This document shows positions 39,940-54,735 of a DNA stretch of 64,000 bases, in pieces. Both the position numbers and the translations under genes were made by a program. Below the pieces are notes generated by a model. The model was given only the letters and a program-made list of their open reading frames with translations, was not told the origin of the DNA and searched no databases. Each line of letters opens with the position of its first letter. Within the stretch, counting starts at the first letter, position 1. Source of the DNA: Phocaeicola sp. (lineage in GTDB: Bacteria; Bacteroidota; Bacteroidia; Bacteroidales; Bacteroidaceae); contig JAZRMW010000020.1 of NCBI GenBank assembly GCA_045647865.1, positions 37,915-101,914 of the forward strand, given 5' to 3'.

Positions 39940-41052
39940 TCAATTTCTAAAAAAACTGATAGCTATCAATGCCAGAATAATCAGTAATAACGCGATGATT
40001 AGTGTTTGGCTAAAACCATTGGAAGAACGAGTTTCAGTAGTGGTCAAATCTACTTTGTTTTTCTTTTTAGGAGTCTCGGTTTCTTCCTCTTCCGAGAATC
40101 CAGACTCATCCAGTTCCACTGTATTCATCAGTTTCTTTTGGGACTTTTCTTCATCTTCAGCTGAAAGGTTTATTCTGCGAACATTTTTTTCATCAAAGAG
40201 TGTATAAGATGAAGTGGTTTCATCTGCTTCTACCGTAGTTGTTTCAAGCAGCGCAACTGTGACATTATCGTAACCTCCAGCTTTCAGAGCGCATAGGATC
40301 AGTTGTTTCCGACATTGTTCGATATCCTCTTTGGCTCCATCCATCACTTGTAGAATTTCTTCATCCCGGCAGACTCCACACAAACCGTCGCTACAGAGAA
40401 GAATTGTGTCTCCAGATTTCAATCGATAGGCTGTGTAATCGGGATTGGCTCTTCCTTGGAAATCTCCCAAGCAACGGGTGATGATGTTGCTATCGGGGTG
40501 GTCGATTGCGAATTCTTCATCCAGTTTGCCGGCATCTACCAATTCCTGTACGTAAGAATGGTCTTTGGTCAGACGCATCAATCCTTCTTCAGCATTGAAA
40601 ACGTATGCCCGGCTGTCGCCACACCATACAATATGAGCGACATCACCAATGACCCATGCTATGACGATGGTTGTTCCCATTCCTTTGGTTTCGGGATTCT
40701 CCTTGACATGTCTCTTGATTTCCTTGTCAGCATCCACTACCACTTTGCACATGAACTTCTCAATTGACTTTTGGCTTTTGCTTATACTGCTCAAGTCTGT
40801 GTCCATGAAATATCTTTTTATGGTATCTACAGCTATCGCAGAGGCCACTTCACCAGCATTGAGTCCACCCATGCCGTCAGCTACCACCAAGATGGCTCCA
40901 TCTTTTCCTAAAGGTATCAATTGGGAAGCATCTTGAGGTACAAACCAATCCGATTGTGACAAATCTTCATTGGTGATAAAATTGTCTTCGTTGTTCGTGC
41001 GCACACAACCTACATGAGTTGCAGCAGTCAATCGAAATTCTATTCTAGACAT
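39940..41052 (-). CDS. PP2C/PPM Ser/Thr phosphatase, C-terminal membrane anchor
   Basis: RTNNED, VADGMGG, GDSRAY, DHS, CSDGL, DNVT; C-terminal TM. Confidence 0.94.
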   Translation of the reverse strand: MSRIEFRLTAATHVGCVRTNNEDNFITNEDLSQSDWFVPQDASQLIPLGKDGAILVVADGMGGLNAGEVASAIAVDTIKRYFMDTDLSSISKSQKSIEKFMCKVVVDADKEIKRHVKENPETKGMGTTIVIAWVIGDVAHIVWCGDSRAYVFNAEEGLMRLTKDHSYVQELVDAGKLDEEFAIDHPDSNIITRCLGDFQGRANPDYTAYRLKSGDTILLCSDGLCGVCRDEEILQVMDGAKEDIEQCRKQLILCALKAGGYDNVTVALLETTTVEADETTSSYTLFDEKNVRRINLSAEDEEKSQKKLMNTVELDESGFSEEEETETPKKKNKVDLTTTETRSSNGFSQTLIIALLLIILALIAISFFRN

Positions 41053-41079
41053 AATCTTTTATCAAAAATTAAACAAATA

Positions 41080-41118
41080 TACTTGCCCGCAAGATTTGCA
41101 TCTCTACACGGGCAAGTA
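41080..41118. other. Intra-operon stem-loop
   Basis: tacttgcccg (41080-41089) / cgggcaagta (41109-41118), perfect 10-bp stem. Confidence 0.6.
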
Positions 41119-41150
41119 AGGAAATAAAATGAGTGATTTGGTTCTTCTTG

Positions 41151-42374
41151 TTATGATATTGGATCAAGAGCTTGAATGTATTCTAAAGTGTCATTTTTAC
41201 GGTTAAATAGATCATCCCATGTCCAAATATCTTTATTTTCTGATGCTTTTCTTATTGAATCTTCTATAGCAGCATTCTTTTGTTGTTCTTCAAGTTCTTT
41301 AATCTTACCATTAGCTACTTCCAACAGTTTCGTCAAGTCTTGGATTTGGCCATTCATCTCTTCACCTGTTGTTTCAGATTGTTCTTTCAGCTTCTCTATT
41401 TCAGCTTTCAATGCGGTGACATATTCATCATTCTGCTTTTTCATGATGTCATATTCCTTCTGCATTTCTGCCTGAATAGAATCTTGCATAGCTTTGGCAG
41501 CTTTCCAGGCTTCAGATTCTGAAACGCCTTTTGCACGGACTTCTTCCAGTGCTTGCATCGCTTTGACTACCTTTTCTTCAGCAAGTTTCAACTGTTCTTC
41601 TGTTGTTCCTGAAGTTTGCTTGAGTGTGCTCAACTCTTCTTGTAACAATACCAAATTTTCCTTGGACTTGTTGAACTCACTTAAAATTTCTAAGCTCTTC
41701 TCTTCGGTTTCTTTTACTTTGGCAGCTTGATTGTTCAATTGACGGGCTTGTTTCTGAACTTTGTCAGTCTGCTCGTTAAGAGCCTGTTCCATTTCACCGA
41801 TTATGCGAGAATAGTTTTCTCCTTGTTTATATATATAGGCTGACAAACCTGCAATGGCAAGTACCAGAACAACTGAAAGAATGGCTATTCCGGTCTTGTA
41901 GGGTTTGAGAGCCTGTTTCTGGAAAAGTTTCAGACGTTCGGTCATGGCAATGGATTTTACCAATCCTTTGGCACCTTGGGGAGCAATGAATCCGATAATC
42001 GGACCTTTTGAAGAGAGGCGGATTTCATCACCAGTGTTCAACATCTGCTCACCGTTGATGGGTTGTCCGTTTACGAACGTTGAGTTTGTCTTTGACAAGG
42101 AGATAAGCTTCCAACCCTCACCTTCGCGAACGATAGCTGCATGCTTGCGGCTAACAGTTTCGCAACCATCATCGAAACGGATTTGGCATTTTGAATCACG
42201 GCCCAACTCAATTTGGTCAACAATTACTTTCTCAGAATCACCGGCTTTATGATATTGAGTCGTTGTTTTGAATTCAAGAATGTAAAAAGTACGACCTGCA
42301 CCATTAACCAATGCACCCATACCTGCACCCACTGAACCAGCAAGGGTTCTCTTGTAAGCTTGTGTTTTTTTCAT
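41151..42374 (-). CDS. FHA domain + TM + long extracytoplasmic coiled coil
   Basis: LGRD...VSRKHA...NSTFVNG FHA motif; TM; heptad-rich C-terminal half. Confidence 0.9.
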   Translation of the reverse strand: MKKTQAYKRTLAGSVGAGMGALVNGAGRTFYILEFKTTTQYHKAGDSEKVIVDQIELGRDSKCQIRFDDGCETVSRKHAAIVREGEGWKLISLSKTNSTFVNGQPINGEQMLNTGDEIRLSSKGPIIGFIAPQGAKGLVKSIAMTERLKLFQKQALKPYKTGIAILSVVLVLAIAGLSAYIYKQGENYSRIIGEMEQALNEQTDKVQKQARQLNNQAAKVKETEEKSLEILSEFNKSKENLVLLQEELSTLKQTSGTTEEQLKLAEEKVVKAMQALEEVRAKGVSESEAWKAAKAMQDSIQAEMQKEYDIMKKQNDEYVTALKAEIEKLKEQSETTGEEMNGQIQDLTKLLEVANGKIKELEEQQKNAAIEDSIRKASENKDIWTWDDLFNRKNDTLEYIQALDPIS

Positions 42375-42398
42375 AATTACAGTTTTTTATTTTGTTTA

Positions 42399-43685
42399 TT
42401 AATATTGTTCGTATCTGAATTTCATGCTTCCGATGGAAATGATGTCATCTGTTTCAAGCCAGAAACCCGAGGCTTTCACTTCGGTCGAATTGACATAAGT
42501 TCCATTAAAGGATAATTCCCATTTCTTGGATTCCCGATTCCATTGTCCATCTCGGATGCGCCAATGCAGGCGTTCCATATCTGTCTCTATGGTACAATGT
42601 CCACGTGATACACAGGGATCCACTACCACAATTTGATTGTCCTTTTGCCTGCCTAACGTGATATTCATCCGTGATGAACTGTTTGACATCTCTGTCAAAT
42701 CATAAACCATACCGTACCCATCACCATGCATTACTCGCAGGCGAGCACCTTTAATCGTCTGTAAGGCATCGTTTCCTTTTTTATTTAGGAGTTCGGATTC
42801 TTCGATATGAGGAATCAGTTTATAAATGTCGGGTATTTTTTGGATACGCTCCTTATAATTGGGTCTTAAGCAACCTTCCAGAAGTGCTCTCCATAAATTG
42901 CCATCAGGAACATTCTTCAATTTCCTTCTATCCCAATCACCAACCTTGATGCGTTTTTGATAGTTTACCAAATCATCATGGTCTTCCAATTTGCCAAATG
43001 GCAATTCGCCTGTCAGCAATTGGTATATCATAACACCAAAAGAGAATATGTCGCGTGTTGGGAGTACGGTCTGTTTTCGTGCTTGAGGTTCACTTGCTTC
43101 AGGTGGCATATAGGCGTAGGTGCCAAATATTTGTATCGGACGTCCCCAAAAGTCTTTACCTGTCTTTCGGTTATCAACGTCTCCAACGATTCCAAAATCA
43201 GTCAACGCCGCTGTTCCATCGGGCTTGAACAGAATGTTCTCTAATTTCAAGTCACGATGAATCTTACCATTCTTATGCAAATCATGCAGACCGTGCAAGA
43301 TGTCCGATGCAATTTTGGATACATTCAGTTTTTTGTTTCCAAGCATCGAAACCAAATCTCCTCCAGGACAAAATTCCATTTTGATGTATGGATTGCCTTT
43401 GATAAATCCGTAGTCAATCGAATGTACCAAATAGGGACTGGCGATTTGTCCGGTCTTGAATTCCATTTCAAAACGTTCGACAAGCGCCTGACGAATATCT
43501 GGGGATACATCCCACAGACGCAGAATTTTTAAGGCATATACGGTTCCTTTTTCATCTTCGACCTTATACACCTTACCAAAGGCACCTTCGCCTAATGTGG
43601 CCAATACCTTCAATCCAGAGGGCATACGCTCTCCTTTTTTCCAATCTATGCGTTGTGGAATTTCGTTGAGTTCTACGGATTTCAT
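42399..43685 (-). CDS. Soluble Hanks-type Ser/Thr kinase with C-terminal FHA domain
   Basis: GEGAFG, ALK, HRDLKLEN, DFG, YMPPE; LGRQ...VSRGH...NGTYVN. Confidence 0.94.
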   Translation of the reverse strand: MKSVELNEIPQRIDWKKGERMPSGLKVLATLGEGAFGKVYKVEDEKGTVYALKILRLWDVSPDIRQALVERFEMEFKTGQIASPYLVHSIDYGFIKGNPYIKMEFCPGGDLVSMLGNKKLNVSKIASDILHGLHDLHKNGKIHRDLKLENILFKPDGTAALTDFGIVGDVDNRKTGKDFWGRPIQIFGTYAYMPPEASEPQARKQTVLPTRDIFSFGVMIYQLLTGELPFGKLEDHDDLVNYQKRIKVGDWDRRKLKNVPDGNLWRALLEGCLRPNYKERIQKIPDIYKLIPHIEESELLNKKGNDALQTIKGARLRVMHGDGYGMVYDLTEMSNSSSRMNITLGRQKDNQIVVVDPCVSRGHCTIETDMERLHWRIRDGQWNRESKKWELSFNGTYVNSTEVKASGFWLETDDIISIGSMKFRYEQY

Positions 43686-43699
43686 ATGATTTTTGGCTA

Positions 43700-44323
43700 T
43701 TATTCAACTCTAGCAAATCTCAATCCGCCAATCAAAACAATGTCGTTCAATTCCCAATCAAGTTTTATTGAACTCTTCAGTTCTATCACACCCAAAGGAG
43801 ACACCGCATTGCTTTTTGTGTCAATGACAGGACGGTCTATAGCCAATAATTTATAAGAATAAGATTCTTCTGTAATTTTCTCTTCTGTAGATTCTGGTTG
43901 AGATGTCAATTCCGTTCCAGTTTCTGTATTATCTACTACCACTGTTGCACGTGGATTCCGCTTCTCTTCTGATGGAGTAGCATCAAATTGTGTCGCTTTG
44001 GGACTTGTTTTTTCCTGGATGATGGTAGAATGATCTACAACTGTTTCTTTATTTGAATTCTGCGAACCTTGATGTTGGAGAACTTGTGTCTTCTTGGAAT
44101 TTCTCTGGTAACCGCATTCTGGACAAACTGATACATTATCGGCTAACTGATAACCACATTTTTCACAAACAATAAAAGTGTCATCATTTTCCTTTGAACT
44201 GCCATTTGAATAAGAGGGCCATTCCCAAGCACTGCTCTTTGGATCTAAAATTTGATTACACTTTGCACATTTTGTCGCCCCTTCAGGATTGTTCCAACCA
44301 CAATTATTGCATCTCATACGCAC
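43700..44323 (-). CDS. Double Zn-ribbon protein with Thr-rich linker and degenerate FHA-like tail
   Basis: CNNC..CAKC and CEKC..CPEC; tail LNDIVLIGGLRF resembles the last FHA strands but lacks the GR/SxxH residues. Confidence 0.8.
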   Translation of the reverse strand: MRMRCNNCGWNNPEGATKCAKCNQILDPKSSAWEWPSYSNGSSKENDDTFIVCEKCGYQLADNVSVCPECGYQRNSKKTQVLQHQGSQNSNKETVVDHSTIIQEKTSPKATQFDATPSEEKRNPRATVVVDNTETGTELTSQPESTEEKITEESYSYKLLAIDRPVIDTKSNAVSPLGVIELKSSIKLDWELNDIVLIGGLRFARVE

Positions 44324-44846: not shown

Positions 44847-45068
44847 TTACTTGTTTTGCAGATGTTTTTGGTATTCGGAGGAGTAGAATCGGAACAAATC
44901 GTACTCAAGTATGCAAGATACACGCCACAATAAAACTGTATCCAAATTTGATTTTCGGAAGATTTTATAAACATTCGTACGGGTACAACATAATTGGGAA
45001 GCAAACCAAGTGACGGTCTTCCCCTGCTTATGTAGTATCTCTTCTATTAAATGGCCTGCATGTACCAT
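44847..45068 (-). CDS. Small XRE/Cro-like HTH regulator, copy 1 (73 aa)
   Basis: MVHAGHLIEEILHKQGKTVTWFASQLCCTRTNVYKIFRKSNLDT... Confidence 0.85.
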   Translation of the reverse strand: MVHAGHLIEEILHKQGKTVTWFASQLCCTRTNVYKIFRKSNLDTVLLWRVSCILEYDLFRFYSSEYQKHLQNK

Positions 45069-45077
45069 ATTGGTACT

Positions 45078-45102
45078 AAAAAAAATCGTGGCCCCACACG
45101 AT
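45078..45102 (-). terminator. Terminator/attenuator-like hairpin just upstream of HTH copy 1
   Basis: On minus: ATCGTG-tggggc-CACGAT followed by a T run. Confidence 0.55.
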
Positions 45103-45127
45103 AACAATTCTAAATTATTTTTTTATT

Positions 45128-45410
45128 AAAAAAGACGTGGGGCTGTCCTCGCTTATCCCACTATCAGGCTCTCGCATTGCCTCCATCAAGGATAAGCAAC
45201 GCAGTTGGCCCACGTCGTGAGATATTATACAAAAACTCTACATGCTGTCTGAGATAGTATGCAGAGGGTACAATACACCCAACGTGGACGTTTCCCGTTG
45301 CGAATCTTCTTGATGGAAATCAAATTTGCGAGATTTGATAGTCGAAGATGCGTTCGTAAACGTCCTTTTATTTATAATGTTACCCACCCAACCCTTGCGG
45401 ACCAACTGGG
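45128..45410 (-). ncRNA. Putative structured leader/antisense-type RNA with two mutually complementary stem-loop domains
   Basis: Domains at 45134-45216 and 45286-45365 each self-pair; five blocks are complementary between them; canonical promoter upstream and U6 after the 3' domain. Confidence 0.65.
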
Positions 45411-45415
45411 TTATG

Positions 45416-45446
45416 CAAAAATAGCCACATTATATGAATGGGCAAA
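45416..45446 (-). promoter_or_regulatory. Bacteroidetes sigma-A promoter driving the leader RNA/island
   Basis: TTTG (45446-45443), 19-nt spacer, TATTTTTG (45423-45416). Confidence 0.75.
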
Positions 45447-45504
45447 ATTTTGTGTTTGTTTTTTAGGTAATTTTATAAAATAGGACTTTTTTGTGCTTTT
45501 TAAC

Positions 45505-47055
45505 CTAATTCCTTGCCTGTTTGGATAATAAAGAGTCTCCTTGGTATGTCAGTATCACTTGGGAACTGATGTGGCCATCGGTATGGATGTGTTGGGTAGA
45601 AAGCATGAAATGTTTGAAGAAATCCTTATGCTTCAAGAATAGAGAGGGTATCCATGGGGTGTTTTCGGCCATTCTTGGATGATGATAGATGAAATCGTTC
45701 AAATCAGTCACCATGGTGAAGTTGGATTCTTCTGCAAGGTCTTCCAAACAATGTATGTATGTCTTTTTGTTGGAGGTGTGTGACATGGGAGATTTCTCTT
45801 CATGAATGTCGGTCAGATAATAGCGTAAGGTTTCTCTTGTGGTGGTTACCAACAGGTTGTTTTGGTAGGTACTTAACCAATAGCCGTTTGCTGTTTGTTG
45901 TGCAATAAAGTAGGAATTCAGGGTGCTGTCTGCCTCGCATTGCCAAATAGGGTAGGGCGTATTGTGTAACCAAATGCTTGCACGGCGTTTGGCGTGCAGA
46001 GGGTATCTCAGTGCCGTTTTTAGCTGGTCGATGTATGATATAGGGATAGGCACCATCAATAATTGGTGGTACAATGTATCTGTGGATGTAGGTTGTGAGA
46101 AATGTATCAAGTCTATTTCCTTGCATCCATTTTCGGCCAATATTGTATTCAGCGTAGCTTGTGGTGAAATGTTCTCTGTCGTTTGGGAATGTACAAAAGA
46201 CTTTTGAGCAACCAATTGTATGTTTTCTGGTAAGAGTTTGTCATCCAGTCTTTTGTGAAGAATGATTGATTCTTCGTTTTTGCATGTGTCAATAACGGTT
46301 TGGTAGTTGGCCAGATAGATGGCTGACGCATTCATACGGATATCATACCGTATCCATTCTTTGTCGTTATTTTCAGGATGCAGATAAAGGGAAAGTGGTT
46401 CATTGTGCTTTGTCTGTTTACGCAAGGTGTTCAGGGAGGGGTATGTAGTCGCAACAGAACGTTCGTTTTTATAGGCATCAATGACTTTTTCAATTAATTT
46501 TTCTTGGAAACTTACGGCAAAGAAACCCGGTTGGAAATAGCAGGCAAGGAAATTGTTTCCTATGGGGTAGATGATGATTTCTTCTCCTTGATAAACCAAA
46601 GTTTTAGGGGTGTGTGCATTTCCTCTATTCTGTCGCATCAGCCGGGTAATGGAGTTGATGTCTCCATTACCAAAGCGTCCGTAGATAACTTGGTCGTGTA
46701 CGGTGCCTGGTGCATGGAAACTGACAATCAGTTGGCTGTTCATCTCTGTGCTGAGGCCATGGGCTTGTTGGCGCGAAATTACATCTATGTTGTGGGTTAG
46801 TATTTTCAGTAACTCTGAAATATGCAATAAATGGTATTTGTCGGCATAGTGGGAGTTCTGTATCGTTTTGTTCAAGGCATTGAGGTCGTTTGCCTCAAGG
46901 ATGGCTTCACTGTTGGCTGGTATCAATGTGTAAAGGTCCGTATCTACTTGTTTTTCCTGAAAACTCAAGTGCGTATATCCCCACCCGATGATGGCAATCA
47001 ATGTAAGGGCTATACATGCAGGTATGACATATATGTAGATTCTTTTCTTGTTCAT
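45505..47055 (-). CDS. Membrane-anchored conserved Bacteroidetes protein (DUF3352-like)
   Basis: N-terminal TM then DLYTLIP motif; start MNKKR at 47055. Confidence 0.6.
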   Translation of the reverse strand: MNKKRIYIYVIPACIALTLIAIIGWGYTHLSFQEKQVDTDLYTLIPANSEAILEANDLNALNKTIQNSHYADKYHLLHISELLKILTHNIDVISRQQAHGLSTEMNSQLIVSFHAPGTVHDQVIYGRFGNGDINSITRLMRQNRGNAHTPKTLVYQGEEIIIYPIGNNFLACYFQPGFFAVSFQEKLIEKVIDAYKNERSVATTYPSLNTLRKQTKHNEPLSLYLHPENNDKEWIRYDIRMNASAIYLANYQTVIDTCKNEESIILHKRLDDKLLPENIQLVAQKSFVHSQTTENISPQATLNTILAENGCKEIDLIHFSQPTSTDTLYHQLLMVPIPISYIDQLKTALRYPLHAKRRASIWLHNTPYPIWQCEADSTLNSYFIAQQTANGYWLSTYQNNLLVTTTRETLRYYLTDIHEEKSPMSHTSNKKTYIHCLEDLAEESNFTMVTDLNDFIYHHPRMAENTPWIPSLFLKHKDFFKHFMLSTQHIHTDGHISSQVILTYQGDSLLSKQARN

Positions 47056-54660: not shown

Positions 54661-54735
54661 GGTGCCTGTAGTTCAGTTGGTTAGAGCGTCAGATTGTGGT
54701 TCTGAATGTCGTCGGTTCGAGTCCGATCAGGCACC
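54661..54735 (+). tRNA. tRNA-His(GTG)
   Basis: G-1 plus GTGCCTG/CAGGCAC acceptor stem, C discriminator, tcaga-ttGTGgt-tctga anticodon arm, GGTTCGAG T-loop. Confidence 0.96.

Follow-up and report, generated by a model that had tools for sequence, protein, structure and literature searches.

A multicopy two-hairpin leader RNA family of Bacteroidales with covarying inter-domain helices and a predicted transcription-termination gate

What lies ahead of the gene for a small helix-turn-helix (HTH)-like protein in Phocaeicola sp., and is it particular to that gene? The locus occupies the minus strand of the window, the 64,000-nt stretch of DNA analyzed here (GenBank assembly GCA_045647865.1, contig JAZRMW010000020.1, positions 37,915 to 101,914). 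A preliminary description, made from the sequence, had placed there a leader RNA of two domains, A and B, with complementary (kissing) loops, and had proposed a conformational attenuator or antisense switch that gates an HTH cascade at the head of an island. The RNA belongs to a large, widespread and previously uncatalogued Bacteroidales family, and covariation supports four helices between its domains A and B, H1-H4, the last of them through pair-preserving substitutions. The leader is predicted, with about an even chance of being right, to gate the accessory gene downstream in cis by transcription termination.

The minus-strand segment 45411-45128 encodes an RNA of ~285 nt, the family length being ~290 nt. 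From its own promoter onward it comprises a 5' hairpin (P0), an A-rich linker, domain A, a spacer hairpin and domain B, which closes with a terminator stem (T1, also written GACGUGGG/CCCACGUC) directly followed by U6 (Table 1). Every stem, loop and complementary block listed in the preliminary description is present where it had been placed. The minimum free energy (MFE) of the 351-nt region is -117.9 kcal/mol, compared with -87.0 +/- 5.5 kcal/mol for shuffled sequences (z = -5.66), and 0 of 100 shuffles equal it. In the nested MFE structure domain A pairs with domain B as a single long irregular hairpin; the complementary loops therefore belong to a colinear A-B complementarity. Copies from the genus carry a hairpin of differing sequence at the P0 position, and the spacer hairpin differs in both length and sequence between homologues.

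A degenerate pattern for domain B, run over a species-representative genome collection, retrieves at least 120 loci; nhmmer gives 109 hits among the listed pattern loci, and ~100 loci are confirmed as members. Among the matches listed, members are found in Prevotella, Segatella copri, Xylanibacter, Paraprevotella, Bacteroides (clarus, bouchesdurhonensis and others), Phocaeicola, Parabacteroides, Muribaculaceae, Paludibacteraceae and bins labelled Porphyromonadaceae. A pattern scan of IMG/VR viral contigs contributes seven full and three partial members, and BLASTN against phage and plasmid record collections returns no matches. Among relatives of the window's strain, 14 of 61 genomes carry a match (12 of 30 within the genus). 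A profile search recovers nine full-length copies in the window's own genome (3.05 Mb, 83% complete), where BLAST detects a second copy at 76% identity. The loop-B pattern hits this genome nine times, the B. thetaiotaomicron genome once, S. copri HDE04 twice and one Parabacteroides genome once. Eight of the nine hits fall in family copies; the remaining one (C61:107506) was rejected as a copy, being a chance match inside a coding region. The window's genus shows expansion, since eight pattern copies and a ninth copy with variant loops compare with one or two elsewhere.

An Rfam search, proposed in the preliminary description as a check, matches no family to the element. At the gathering threshold of Rfam 15, only a tRNA gene passes in the whole window (54662-54735, RF00005, 63.4 bits), with nothing on the element. 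At E ≤ 10, the interval 44900-45600 yields two noise hits only, rli37 (20.7 bits against a gathering score of 90) and rimP (E 8.2), both outside domains A and B, and the element has no Rfam match in any of 15 homologous loci. No description of the family was found in Bacteroides small RNA (sRNA) papers, the Segatella copri transcriptome or the Breaker-lab motif surveys. The family is new to Rfam 15 and to the literature searched, save for a partial annotation in B. thetaiotaomicron, the sRNA BTnc163.

Alignments suffer from indels in the variable loops, which obscure domain A and the pseudoknots: from 86 sequences aligned with MAFFT, RNAalifold recovers domain B only, and a column-wise mutual-information scan on a hidden Markov model (HMM) alignment, blurred by the same indels, reports 15 pairs only. 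Anchor-based, alignment-free duplex tests were chosen for this reason. Segments between conserved anchors were extracted from 114 sequences, 105 of them below 80% pairwise identity, and the energies of cognate and non-cognate duplexes were compared.

H1 is formed in nearly all sequences by the 5' internal-loop strand of domain A (V1) and the 3' internal-loop strand of domain B (V1'), while H3 joins the 3' internal-loop strand of domain A (V3) to the 5' internal-loop strand of domain B (V3'). Among the 114 sequences, 104 distinct H1 strands and 112 distinct H3 strands occur. Cognate duplexes average -9.1 kcal/mol for H1 and -9.6 kcal/mol for H3, against -2.0 kcal/mol for non-cognate duplexes of either helix, and the cognate partner outranks all others in 85/107 and 86/113 cases, respectively. 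Control pairings (V1-V3', V3-V1' and V1-V3) lie at ~-1.5 kcal/mol and show no signal. H1 is usually a perfect 9-bp helix that begins 0 nt after the GCC of stem S5, and H3 usually spans 8-9 bp. The loop-loop helix H2, YYUCGCA:UGCGARR, contains a variable dinucleotide that changes in concert on both sides (CU:AG, n = 54; UC:GA, n = 53; UG:CA, n = 1; CC:GG, n = 1). The five positions of H4, GCAAC:GUUGC, each hold canonical pairs in 113-114 of 114 sequences, and its substitutions are pair-preserving in 23 of 23 cases, comprising G.U wobbles and one G:C to A:U double change.

These helices bear directly on the five ordered blocks that had been proposed to zip domain A onto domain B. CTATCA, CTCGCA and CCATCAAG are borne out by compensatory changes across more than 100 homologues. 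GCAACG:CGTTGC is upheld by pair-preserving substitutions only, and CCACGT:ACGTGG retains conserved complementarity without decisive covariation. The proposal that zipping breaks the closing stem of domain B did not hold: the loop pairings are compatible with both states of the base, and only the helices at the base compete.

The intradomain stems are supported as well. In domain B, RNAalifold assigns 10-38 double compensatory changes to several pairs, with up to 15 per pair in T1 and up to 38 in S4, and also recovers S5, whose GGC/GCC pairing is neither supported nor opposed because it is invariant. In domain A, S2 covaries (ATCTTC/GAAGAT, ATCTTT/AAAGAT, GTTCTT/AAGAAC and others), as does S3 (CAAA/TTTG, CTAA/TTAG, CAGA/TCTG, GAA/TTC). 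S1, at column pair 7:100, is canonical in 82 of 86 sequences, with A:U, G:C and G:U all occurring. The inner stem first drawn as ATCAAAT/ATTTGAT is retained in its CAAA/TTTG core; comparative data assign its ATC part to pairing with domain B. The combinations S2a-S4b and S2b-S4a give no cognate signal, and the stems of A and B are not mutually complementary.

G.U pairs account for 11.7% of H1/H3 pairs and are common in S4 and T1 too, which places the selection on this RNA strand and not at the DNA level. Together with the covariation and the orientation relative to promoter and terminator, this composition marks the two domains with complementary loops as a selected RNA-level feature, as the preliminary description had it. 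A miniature inverted-repeat transposable element (MITE)-like mobile element or a recombination site would account for the multiple copies, the overall resemblance of domain A to the reverse complement of domain B and the association with accessory genes. However, each of these G.U pairs is an A.C mismatch on the other strand, the orientation to promoter, terminator and downstream gene is fixed, a transcription start site (TSS) is mapped in B. thetaiotaomicron, and no transposase or recombinase recurs nearby. A long inverted repeat or other DNA-level element was rejected on the G.U pairs and the fixed orientation, and such an origin is scarcely credible.

Strand connectivity suggests two four-way junctions, (S2, H1, S4, H3) and (H1, S3, H3, S5), with linkers of 0-2 nt. 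H1 and H3 would bridge both junctions, and the tips of S3 and S5 would kiss through H2. At each junction 2-4 nt can enter either an intradomain or an inter-domain helix; S3a of the window copy, for example, can lend its CA to H1. All helices may coexist, or the RNA may alternate between two hairpins plus kissing loops and an extended rod. The nested energies are -110.9 kcal/mol for the extended rod and -95.6 kcal/mol for the two-hairpin form before ~-30 kcal/mol is added for H1-H3.

The same contacts might instead form between identical molecules, the A loops of one pairing with the B loops of another to give dimers or chains. Covariation cannot separate intramolecular from intermolecular pairing of identical molecules, and three to four loop-loop contacts are typical of RNA quaternary structure (10.1101/2024.12.08.627333). 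The colinear, antiparallel order of H1-H4 with short linkers nevertheless fits a compact intramolecular fold and no data require oligomers; we regard homo-oligomers as very improbable.

The closest topological parallel is CopA-CopT of plasmid R1, in which kissing loops are likewise extended by flanking helices while the lower stems are kept. S2 and S4 together with H1 and H3 would reproduce the CopA-CopT four-way junction, here within one molecule. CopA and CopT, in contrast, are separate sense and antisense transcripts that control replication, whereas both hairpins of the present RNA lie in tandem on one strand. The opposite-strand transcripts typical of a CopA-CopT-type pair are not found here; the loops are complementary and the stems differ.

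Within the window's own genome, the H1/H3 sequences are private to each of the nine copies. In the H1 and H3 energy matrices the diagonal of the intact copies ranges from -8.6 to -15.6 kcal/mol, off-diagonal values are mostly weaker than -6 kcal/mol, and every intact copy pairs with itself only. In one copy (C23:95516-95841) both kissing loops are exchanged for UCGUAGGAA in domain A and UUCCUACGA in domain B with the other scaffold retained, which, judged from its sequence, is a natural compensatory loop swap. Another copy (C63:124334-124591) has a mutated loop A (UUUUCACC) and looks decayed, because both H1 and H2 are lost and no open reading frame (ORF) follows within 260 nt. The genes behind the nine copies differ and include lipoproteins, a 473-aa secreted protein and a 232-aa protein that is methyltransferase-like by eye, among others. 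Orthogonality between copies could be selected, either to avoid mispairing or to let each locus act privately in trans; drift in helices whose sole requirement is pairing could also produce it.

Expression evidence comes from B. thetaiotaomicron. In the published transcriptome tables the loop-B motif occurs once (NC_004663.1, 3765890-3765970), downstream of a TSS at 3765732 with a PM1 promoter, and an intergenic sRNA with high read counts, BTnc163, is annotated at 3765732-3765834 (PMC7366714). The locus is a short-form member of the family, and the retrieved coordinates agree with the published record. Its TSS lies 5 nt past a TATCTTTG box, and by this homology the window transcript would start at ~45411. 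The loops of domains A and B are UUCUCGCA and UGCGAGAA, H1 comprises 8 bp, and the terminator is followed by an ORF 48 nt on; H3 is weak (5 bp), and an S1-type closing stem is apparently missing, as judged by eye. The BTnc163 annotation corresponds to the first 102 nt of the RNA, that is, P0 and the 5' two thirds of domain A, with its 3' end inside V3, and read counts are ~24-fold lower over domain B than over the annotated sRNA. Many sRNAs in the same table measure 75-102 nt (PMC7366714), and two small ORFs ('sORFs') listed in the published tables are in fact pieces of domains A and B. The short form could result from processing or from a read-length effect of differential RNA sequencing (dRNA-seq). 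BTnc163 is named in no main text of the literature searched, and in a later atlas in gene lists only; no structure, family or function of it appears to have been described.

Private pairing and a short 5' annotation rich in reads would both suit antisense feedback confined to each locus, following the logic of P1 c4 and P4 CI. A stable domain A fragment would pair with nascent domain B in trans and tune termination or RNase III processing, with H1 and H3 serving as addresses that avoid cross-talk between paralogues. The self-only pairing of the own-genome copies, the near-complete distinctness of H1 and H3 strands and the excess of reads over the 5' 102 nt of the B. thetaiotaomicron member all point in this direction. 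Domains A and B share a transcript, however, and should therefore pair in cis before they can do so in trans; drift alone is expected to render pairing-only helices hypervariable; the short BTnc163 annotation may reflect dRNA-seq read length; and no Rfam C4-type model matches. Taken together, we consider trans feedback improbable. Its models retain an instructive likeness. In P1/P7 c4 and P4 CI, the exposed loops of a leader-borne RNA can pair with matching sequences that lie further along its transcript, specificity between P1 and P7 is set by matched variable sequences, and the outcome in P4 is transcription termination. Unlike these RNAs, the present family has elaborate hairpins for both partners, docking through four helices in a ~285-nt RNA, and it has no phage immunity context, diverse downstream genes and no similarity to Rfam C4. 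The analogy of logic drawn in the preliminary description is apt, and the element is not a member of the c4 or CI family.

The position of the RNA relative to genes is that of a leader: in the window and across the family, a promoter of its own and an intrinsic terminator precede an ORF on the same strand. In 81 of the 102 loci with enough flank for an ORF distance, an ORF of 60 aa or more on the same strand begins no further than 90 nt from the U-tract (median 70 nt, interquartile range 57-78 nt). An exact TAnnTTTG box is located no more than 110 nt upstream of domain A in 83/109 loci, compared with 5/109 in the 100 nt past the terminator and 2/109 inside the RNA. From the 83 upstream boxes against five beyond the terminator, the downstream gene appears to depend on the promoter of the RNA.

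The downstream genes are diverse. BspA-type leucine-rich repeat (LRR) surface proteins (Pfam LRR_5, Big_2) form the largest class, with 29 loci; CXXX-repeat peptides follow the RNA in eight loci, seven of which include a radical S-adenosylmethionine (radical-SAM) partner, and many lipoproteins occur. Defence-type genes comprise those for a Type III methyltransferase, a GajB-like UvrD helicase, PDC-S31, a STAND NTPase, and FHA and VWA proteins. Small HTH-like proteins resembling that of the window are found at ~10 loci in several genera. With an HTH gene in ~10% of loci only, the family is generic, and the notion of a device dedicated to gating an HTH cascade or island is not upheld. Clustering of ORFs of at least 80 aa from 114 loci returns LRR proteins, CXXX peptides with the radical-SAM partner and AAA ATPases as recurring families, and no recombinase, transposase, reverse transcriptase or nuclease recurs among them. 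Identities as 6S-like RNA, retron, bridge RNA (IS110) or omega-RNA were rejected, there being no Rfam match and no recurring partner enzyme gene.

Three viral contigs (L156, L158 and L167) carry the leader ahead of cargo genes of defence-like type. These encode a GajB-like UvrD helicase and its 542-aa partner, a PDC-S31 candidate, and a 577-aa protein that matches PDC-S48 and is followed by one that is Hsp70-like by eye. In Prevotella ihumii, an abiF RNA motif (RF03085, 47.8 bits; L054:1254-1290) lies ~235 nt upstream of a family member, which in turn precedes a UvrD-like helicase gene.

How such a leader might gate its gene is suggested by conserved alternative pairings at the base of the two domains. 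The docked A:B body would be a constant scaffold, and possibly a sensor, compatible through H1-H4 with both base states, so that the decision would fall at the base. With the gene off, S1 would close domain A and T1 would close domain B, giving termination. With the gene on, S1a would be held in an alternative local hairpin, P1alt, and the freed 3' flank of S1b would pair with T1a (H5), leaving T1b without a partner and permitting read-through. The balance could be shifted by the speed of transcription, by a protein, by a small molecule or by temperature.

Comparative evidence for these exchanges is found on both sides of the switch. When the transcript is folded up to T1b, the MFE structure of 114/114 homologues joins T1a to the 3' flank of S1b; H5 directly lengthens the base of the spacer hairpin and is mutually exclusive with both S1 and T1. 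The partner of S1a in P1alt is a local ACGY a few nt downstream, giving 5-7 bp in most homologues, and columns 7:22 are canonical in 80 of 86 sequences (G:C, n = 43; A:U, n = 23; G:U, n = 14). The S1a column thereby keeps two exclusive partners, canonical in 80/86 sequences with P1alt and in 82/86 with S1b. These conserved, mutually exclusive pairings around a terminator suggest attenuator-like logic, in which S1 and T1 would terminate and P1alt and H5 would read through, and on their account the conformational attenuator first proposed is a reasonable reading.

Several observations weigh against a gate. P1alt of the window is only 3 bp long, with an A.C mismatch at the 7:22 pair, and in this copy a second terminator-like hairpin follows T1. 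It sits between T1 and the HTH start codon, 10 nt from the ATG, so that two terminators stand in tandem; at most homologous loci the ORF starts too near T1 to accommodate it. T1 is an integral, covarying part of conserved domain B, and the conserved fold is therefore that of a terminated RNA. H5 and a possible S1a:T1b helix give no cognate-specific signal in the duplex test because their segments are nearly invariant. Strand exchange could let S1a pair with T1b and leave a helix ahead of the U-tract; column 7:390 of that helix has six A.C mismatches, and a weaker terminator is still possible. The MFE predictions disregard pseudoknots and folding kinetics. Finally, the downstream genes share no pathway, and no common function points to a signal.

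Much of this would suit a stand-alone structured sRNA that always ends at T1, for instance a protein-binding or scaffold RNA, with the downstream gene served by leaky read-through or merely kept as a cassette companion. The place of T1 in domain B, the stability of the two-domain fold once H1-H3 are added, which is at least equal to that of the extended form, the intergenic sRNA annotation with high read counts in B. thetaiotaomicron and the additional terminator before the window's gene all favor it. It leaves unexplained, however, the tight spacing of the ORF behind the U-tract, the rarity of a promoter box between terminator and ORF, and the conserved alternative base pairings, which are unexpected for an independent sRNA gene; we hold it to be rather unlikely. 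Among known sRNAs, FopS and GibS offer a likeness as a multicopy Bacteroidaceae noncoding RNA family with canonical promoters. FopS RNAs, represented in Rfam, are short, present a single-stranded seed followed by a terminator hairpin, and act on susC mRNAs (PMC11697453). Identity with FopS/GibS was rejected on this seed-plus-terminator build and on their presence in Rfam.

The proposed cis-acting termination gate resembles trp-type attenuators and riboswitch leaders in its promoter-proximal structure and its terminator ahead of an ORF, and probably in its exclusive pairings. Unlike trp-type attenuators, the leader has no leader peptide; unlike riboswitches, its terminator stem is the closing stem of a conserved domain, with no separate expression platform. 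Any aptamer here would arise from the docking of two hairpins ~70 nt apart, which also sets it apart from known riboswitches. Cyclic di-GMP (c-di-GMP) riboswitches occur in many copies per genome before unrelated surface and accessory genes, and also in phage DNA, and in this the present family is like them. It has a conserved complex fold, and its members are not associated with one pathway. In a more speculative extension, which we rate as quite unlikely, the A:B body would be the sensor of a new riboswitch-like class that reads a global signal and co-ordinates unrelated accessory operons. The signal may be a second messenger, an alarmone, an ion or transcription speed, and the operons would be those for BspA-type surface proteins, defence systems, ribosomally synthesized and post-translationally modified peptide (RiPP) clusters, small HTH regulators and prophage cargo. 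Hypervariable H1 and H3 would then prevent mispairing among up to nine copies per cell.

The features of the window copy and the positions of its paralogues are collected in Table 1. The 73-aa HTH-like protein, the first gene downstream, has no Pfam match. The operon behind the leader (39940-44323, minus strand) encodes a double zinc-ribbon protein, a Ser/Thr kinase-FHA protein, an FHA membrane protein and a PP2C phosphatase; the kinase matches the PADLOC kinase models mad6 and PD-T4-6, and the operon may be a conflict or defence-type signalling module.

Table 1. Parts of the leader RNA locus in window coordinates, in order of transcription, and copies of the RNA in the same genome (contig label:positions)
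Feature	Position	Strand	Basis or remark
Promoter, Bacteroidota-type, TTTG-N19-TATTTTTG	45446-45416	-	Read from sequence
-33 element TTTG	45446-45443	-	Followed by 19-nt spacer
-7 box TATTTTTG	45423-45416	-	
P0, hairpin at RNA 5' end	45411-45382	-	Every predicted fold; -13 kcal/mol
Domain A	45365-45286	-	Sequence, table of 114 homologues, covariation
S1 GGACGTTT/AAACGTCC	45365-45358 / 45293-45286	-	Closes domain A
P1alt site	45362-45351	-	Alternative local hairpin, S1a core CGU with downstream ACG
S2 ATCTTC/GAAGAT	45349-45344 / 45309-45304	-	
H1a	45342-45336	-	Domain A strand pairing with domain B
S3 core CAAA/TTTG	45337-45334 / 45324-45321	-	
Domain A loop TCTCGCA (H2a)	45333-45327	-	
H3a	45318-45309	-	Domain A strand pairing with domain B
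H4a GCAAC	45301-45297	-	Domain A strand pairing with domain B
H5a GUCCACGUUG	45289-45280	-	3' part of S1b and flank; complementary to T1a; candidate antiterminator strand
Spacer hairpin, conserved base helix GUAUUGUAC/GUAUAAUAU, variable tip	45279-45218	-	Predicted folds, -19.1 kcal/mol
Domain B	45217-45128	-	RNAalifold on 86 sequences; folds at -41.2 kcal/mol
H5 partner strand CGACGUGGGC	45217-45208	-	Pairs with H5a
T1 terminator stem GACGTGGG/CCCACGTC	45216-45209 / 45141-45134	-	8 bp; then U6 45133-45128
H4b GUUGC	45200-45196	-	Domain B strand pairing with domain A
S4 GCTTATCC/GGATAAGC	45197-45190 / 45158-45151	-	
H3b	45190-45181	-	Domain B strand pairing with domain A
S5 GGC/GCC	45181-45179 / 45169-45167	-	
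Domain B loop TGCGAGA (H2b)	45176-45170	-	
H1b	45166-45160	-	Domain B strand pairing with domain A
Second terminator-like hairpin (45102-45085) and U8 run	45102-45078	-	Independent terminator scan
First downstream gene, 73-aa HTH-like protein	45068-44847 (ATG 45068-45066)	-	ORF list and translation
Own-genome copy	C63:247842-248104		
Own-genome copy	C63:82531-82793		
Own-genome copy	C63:124334-124591		
Own-genome copy	C65:18725-19005		
Own-genome copy	C2:142890-143154		
Own-genome copy	C7:84746-85020		
Own-genome copy	C23:95516-95841		
Own-genome copy	C20:12535-12748		
Own-genome copy	C20:83042-83290		Window copy

Bacteroidales dominate the human and ruminant gut, and to our knowledge they lack Hfq, ProQ and CsrA and few structured regulatory RNAs have been described in them. 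The present family stands ahead of genes that determine the make-up of the cell surface and the defence against phages. If the gating is true, accessory genes of Prevotella, Segatella, Bacteroides, Parabacteroides and Muribaculaceae would have a control point in common. The RNA also provides a natural case of two hairpins docking through several loop-loop helices, spanning two four-way junctions, with copy-specific address helices, which makes it relevant to RNA folding and to the supply of orthogonal RNA parts. Through BTnc163 the family can be tested directly in the genetically tractable B. thetaiotaomicron.

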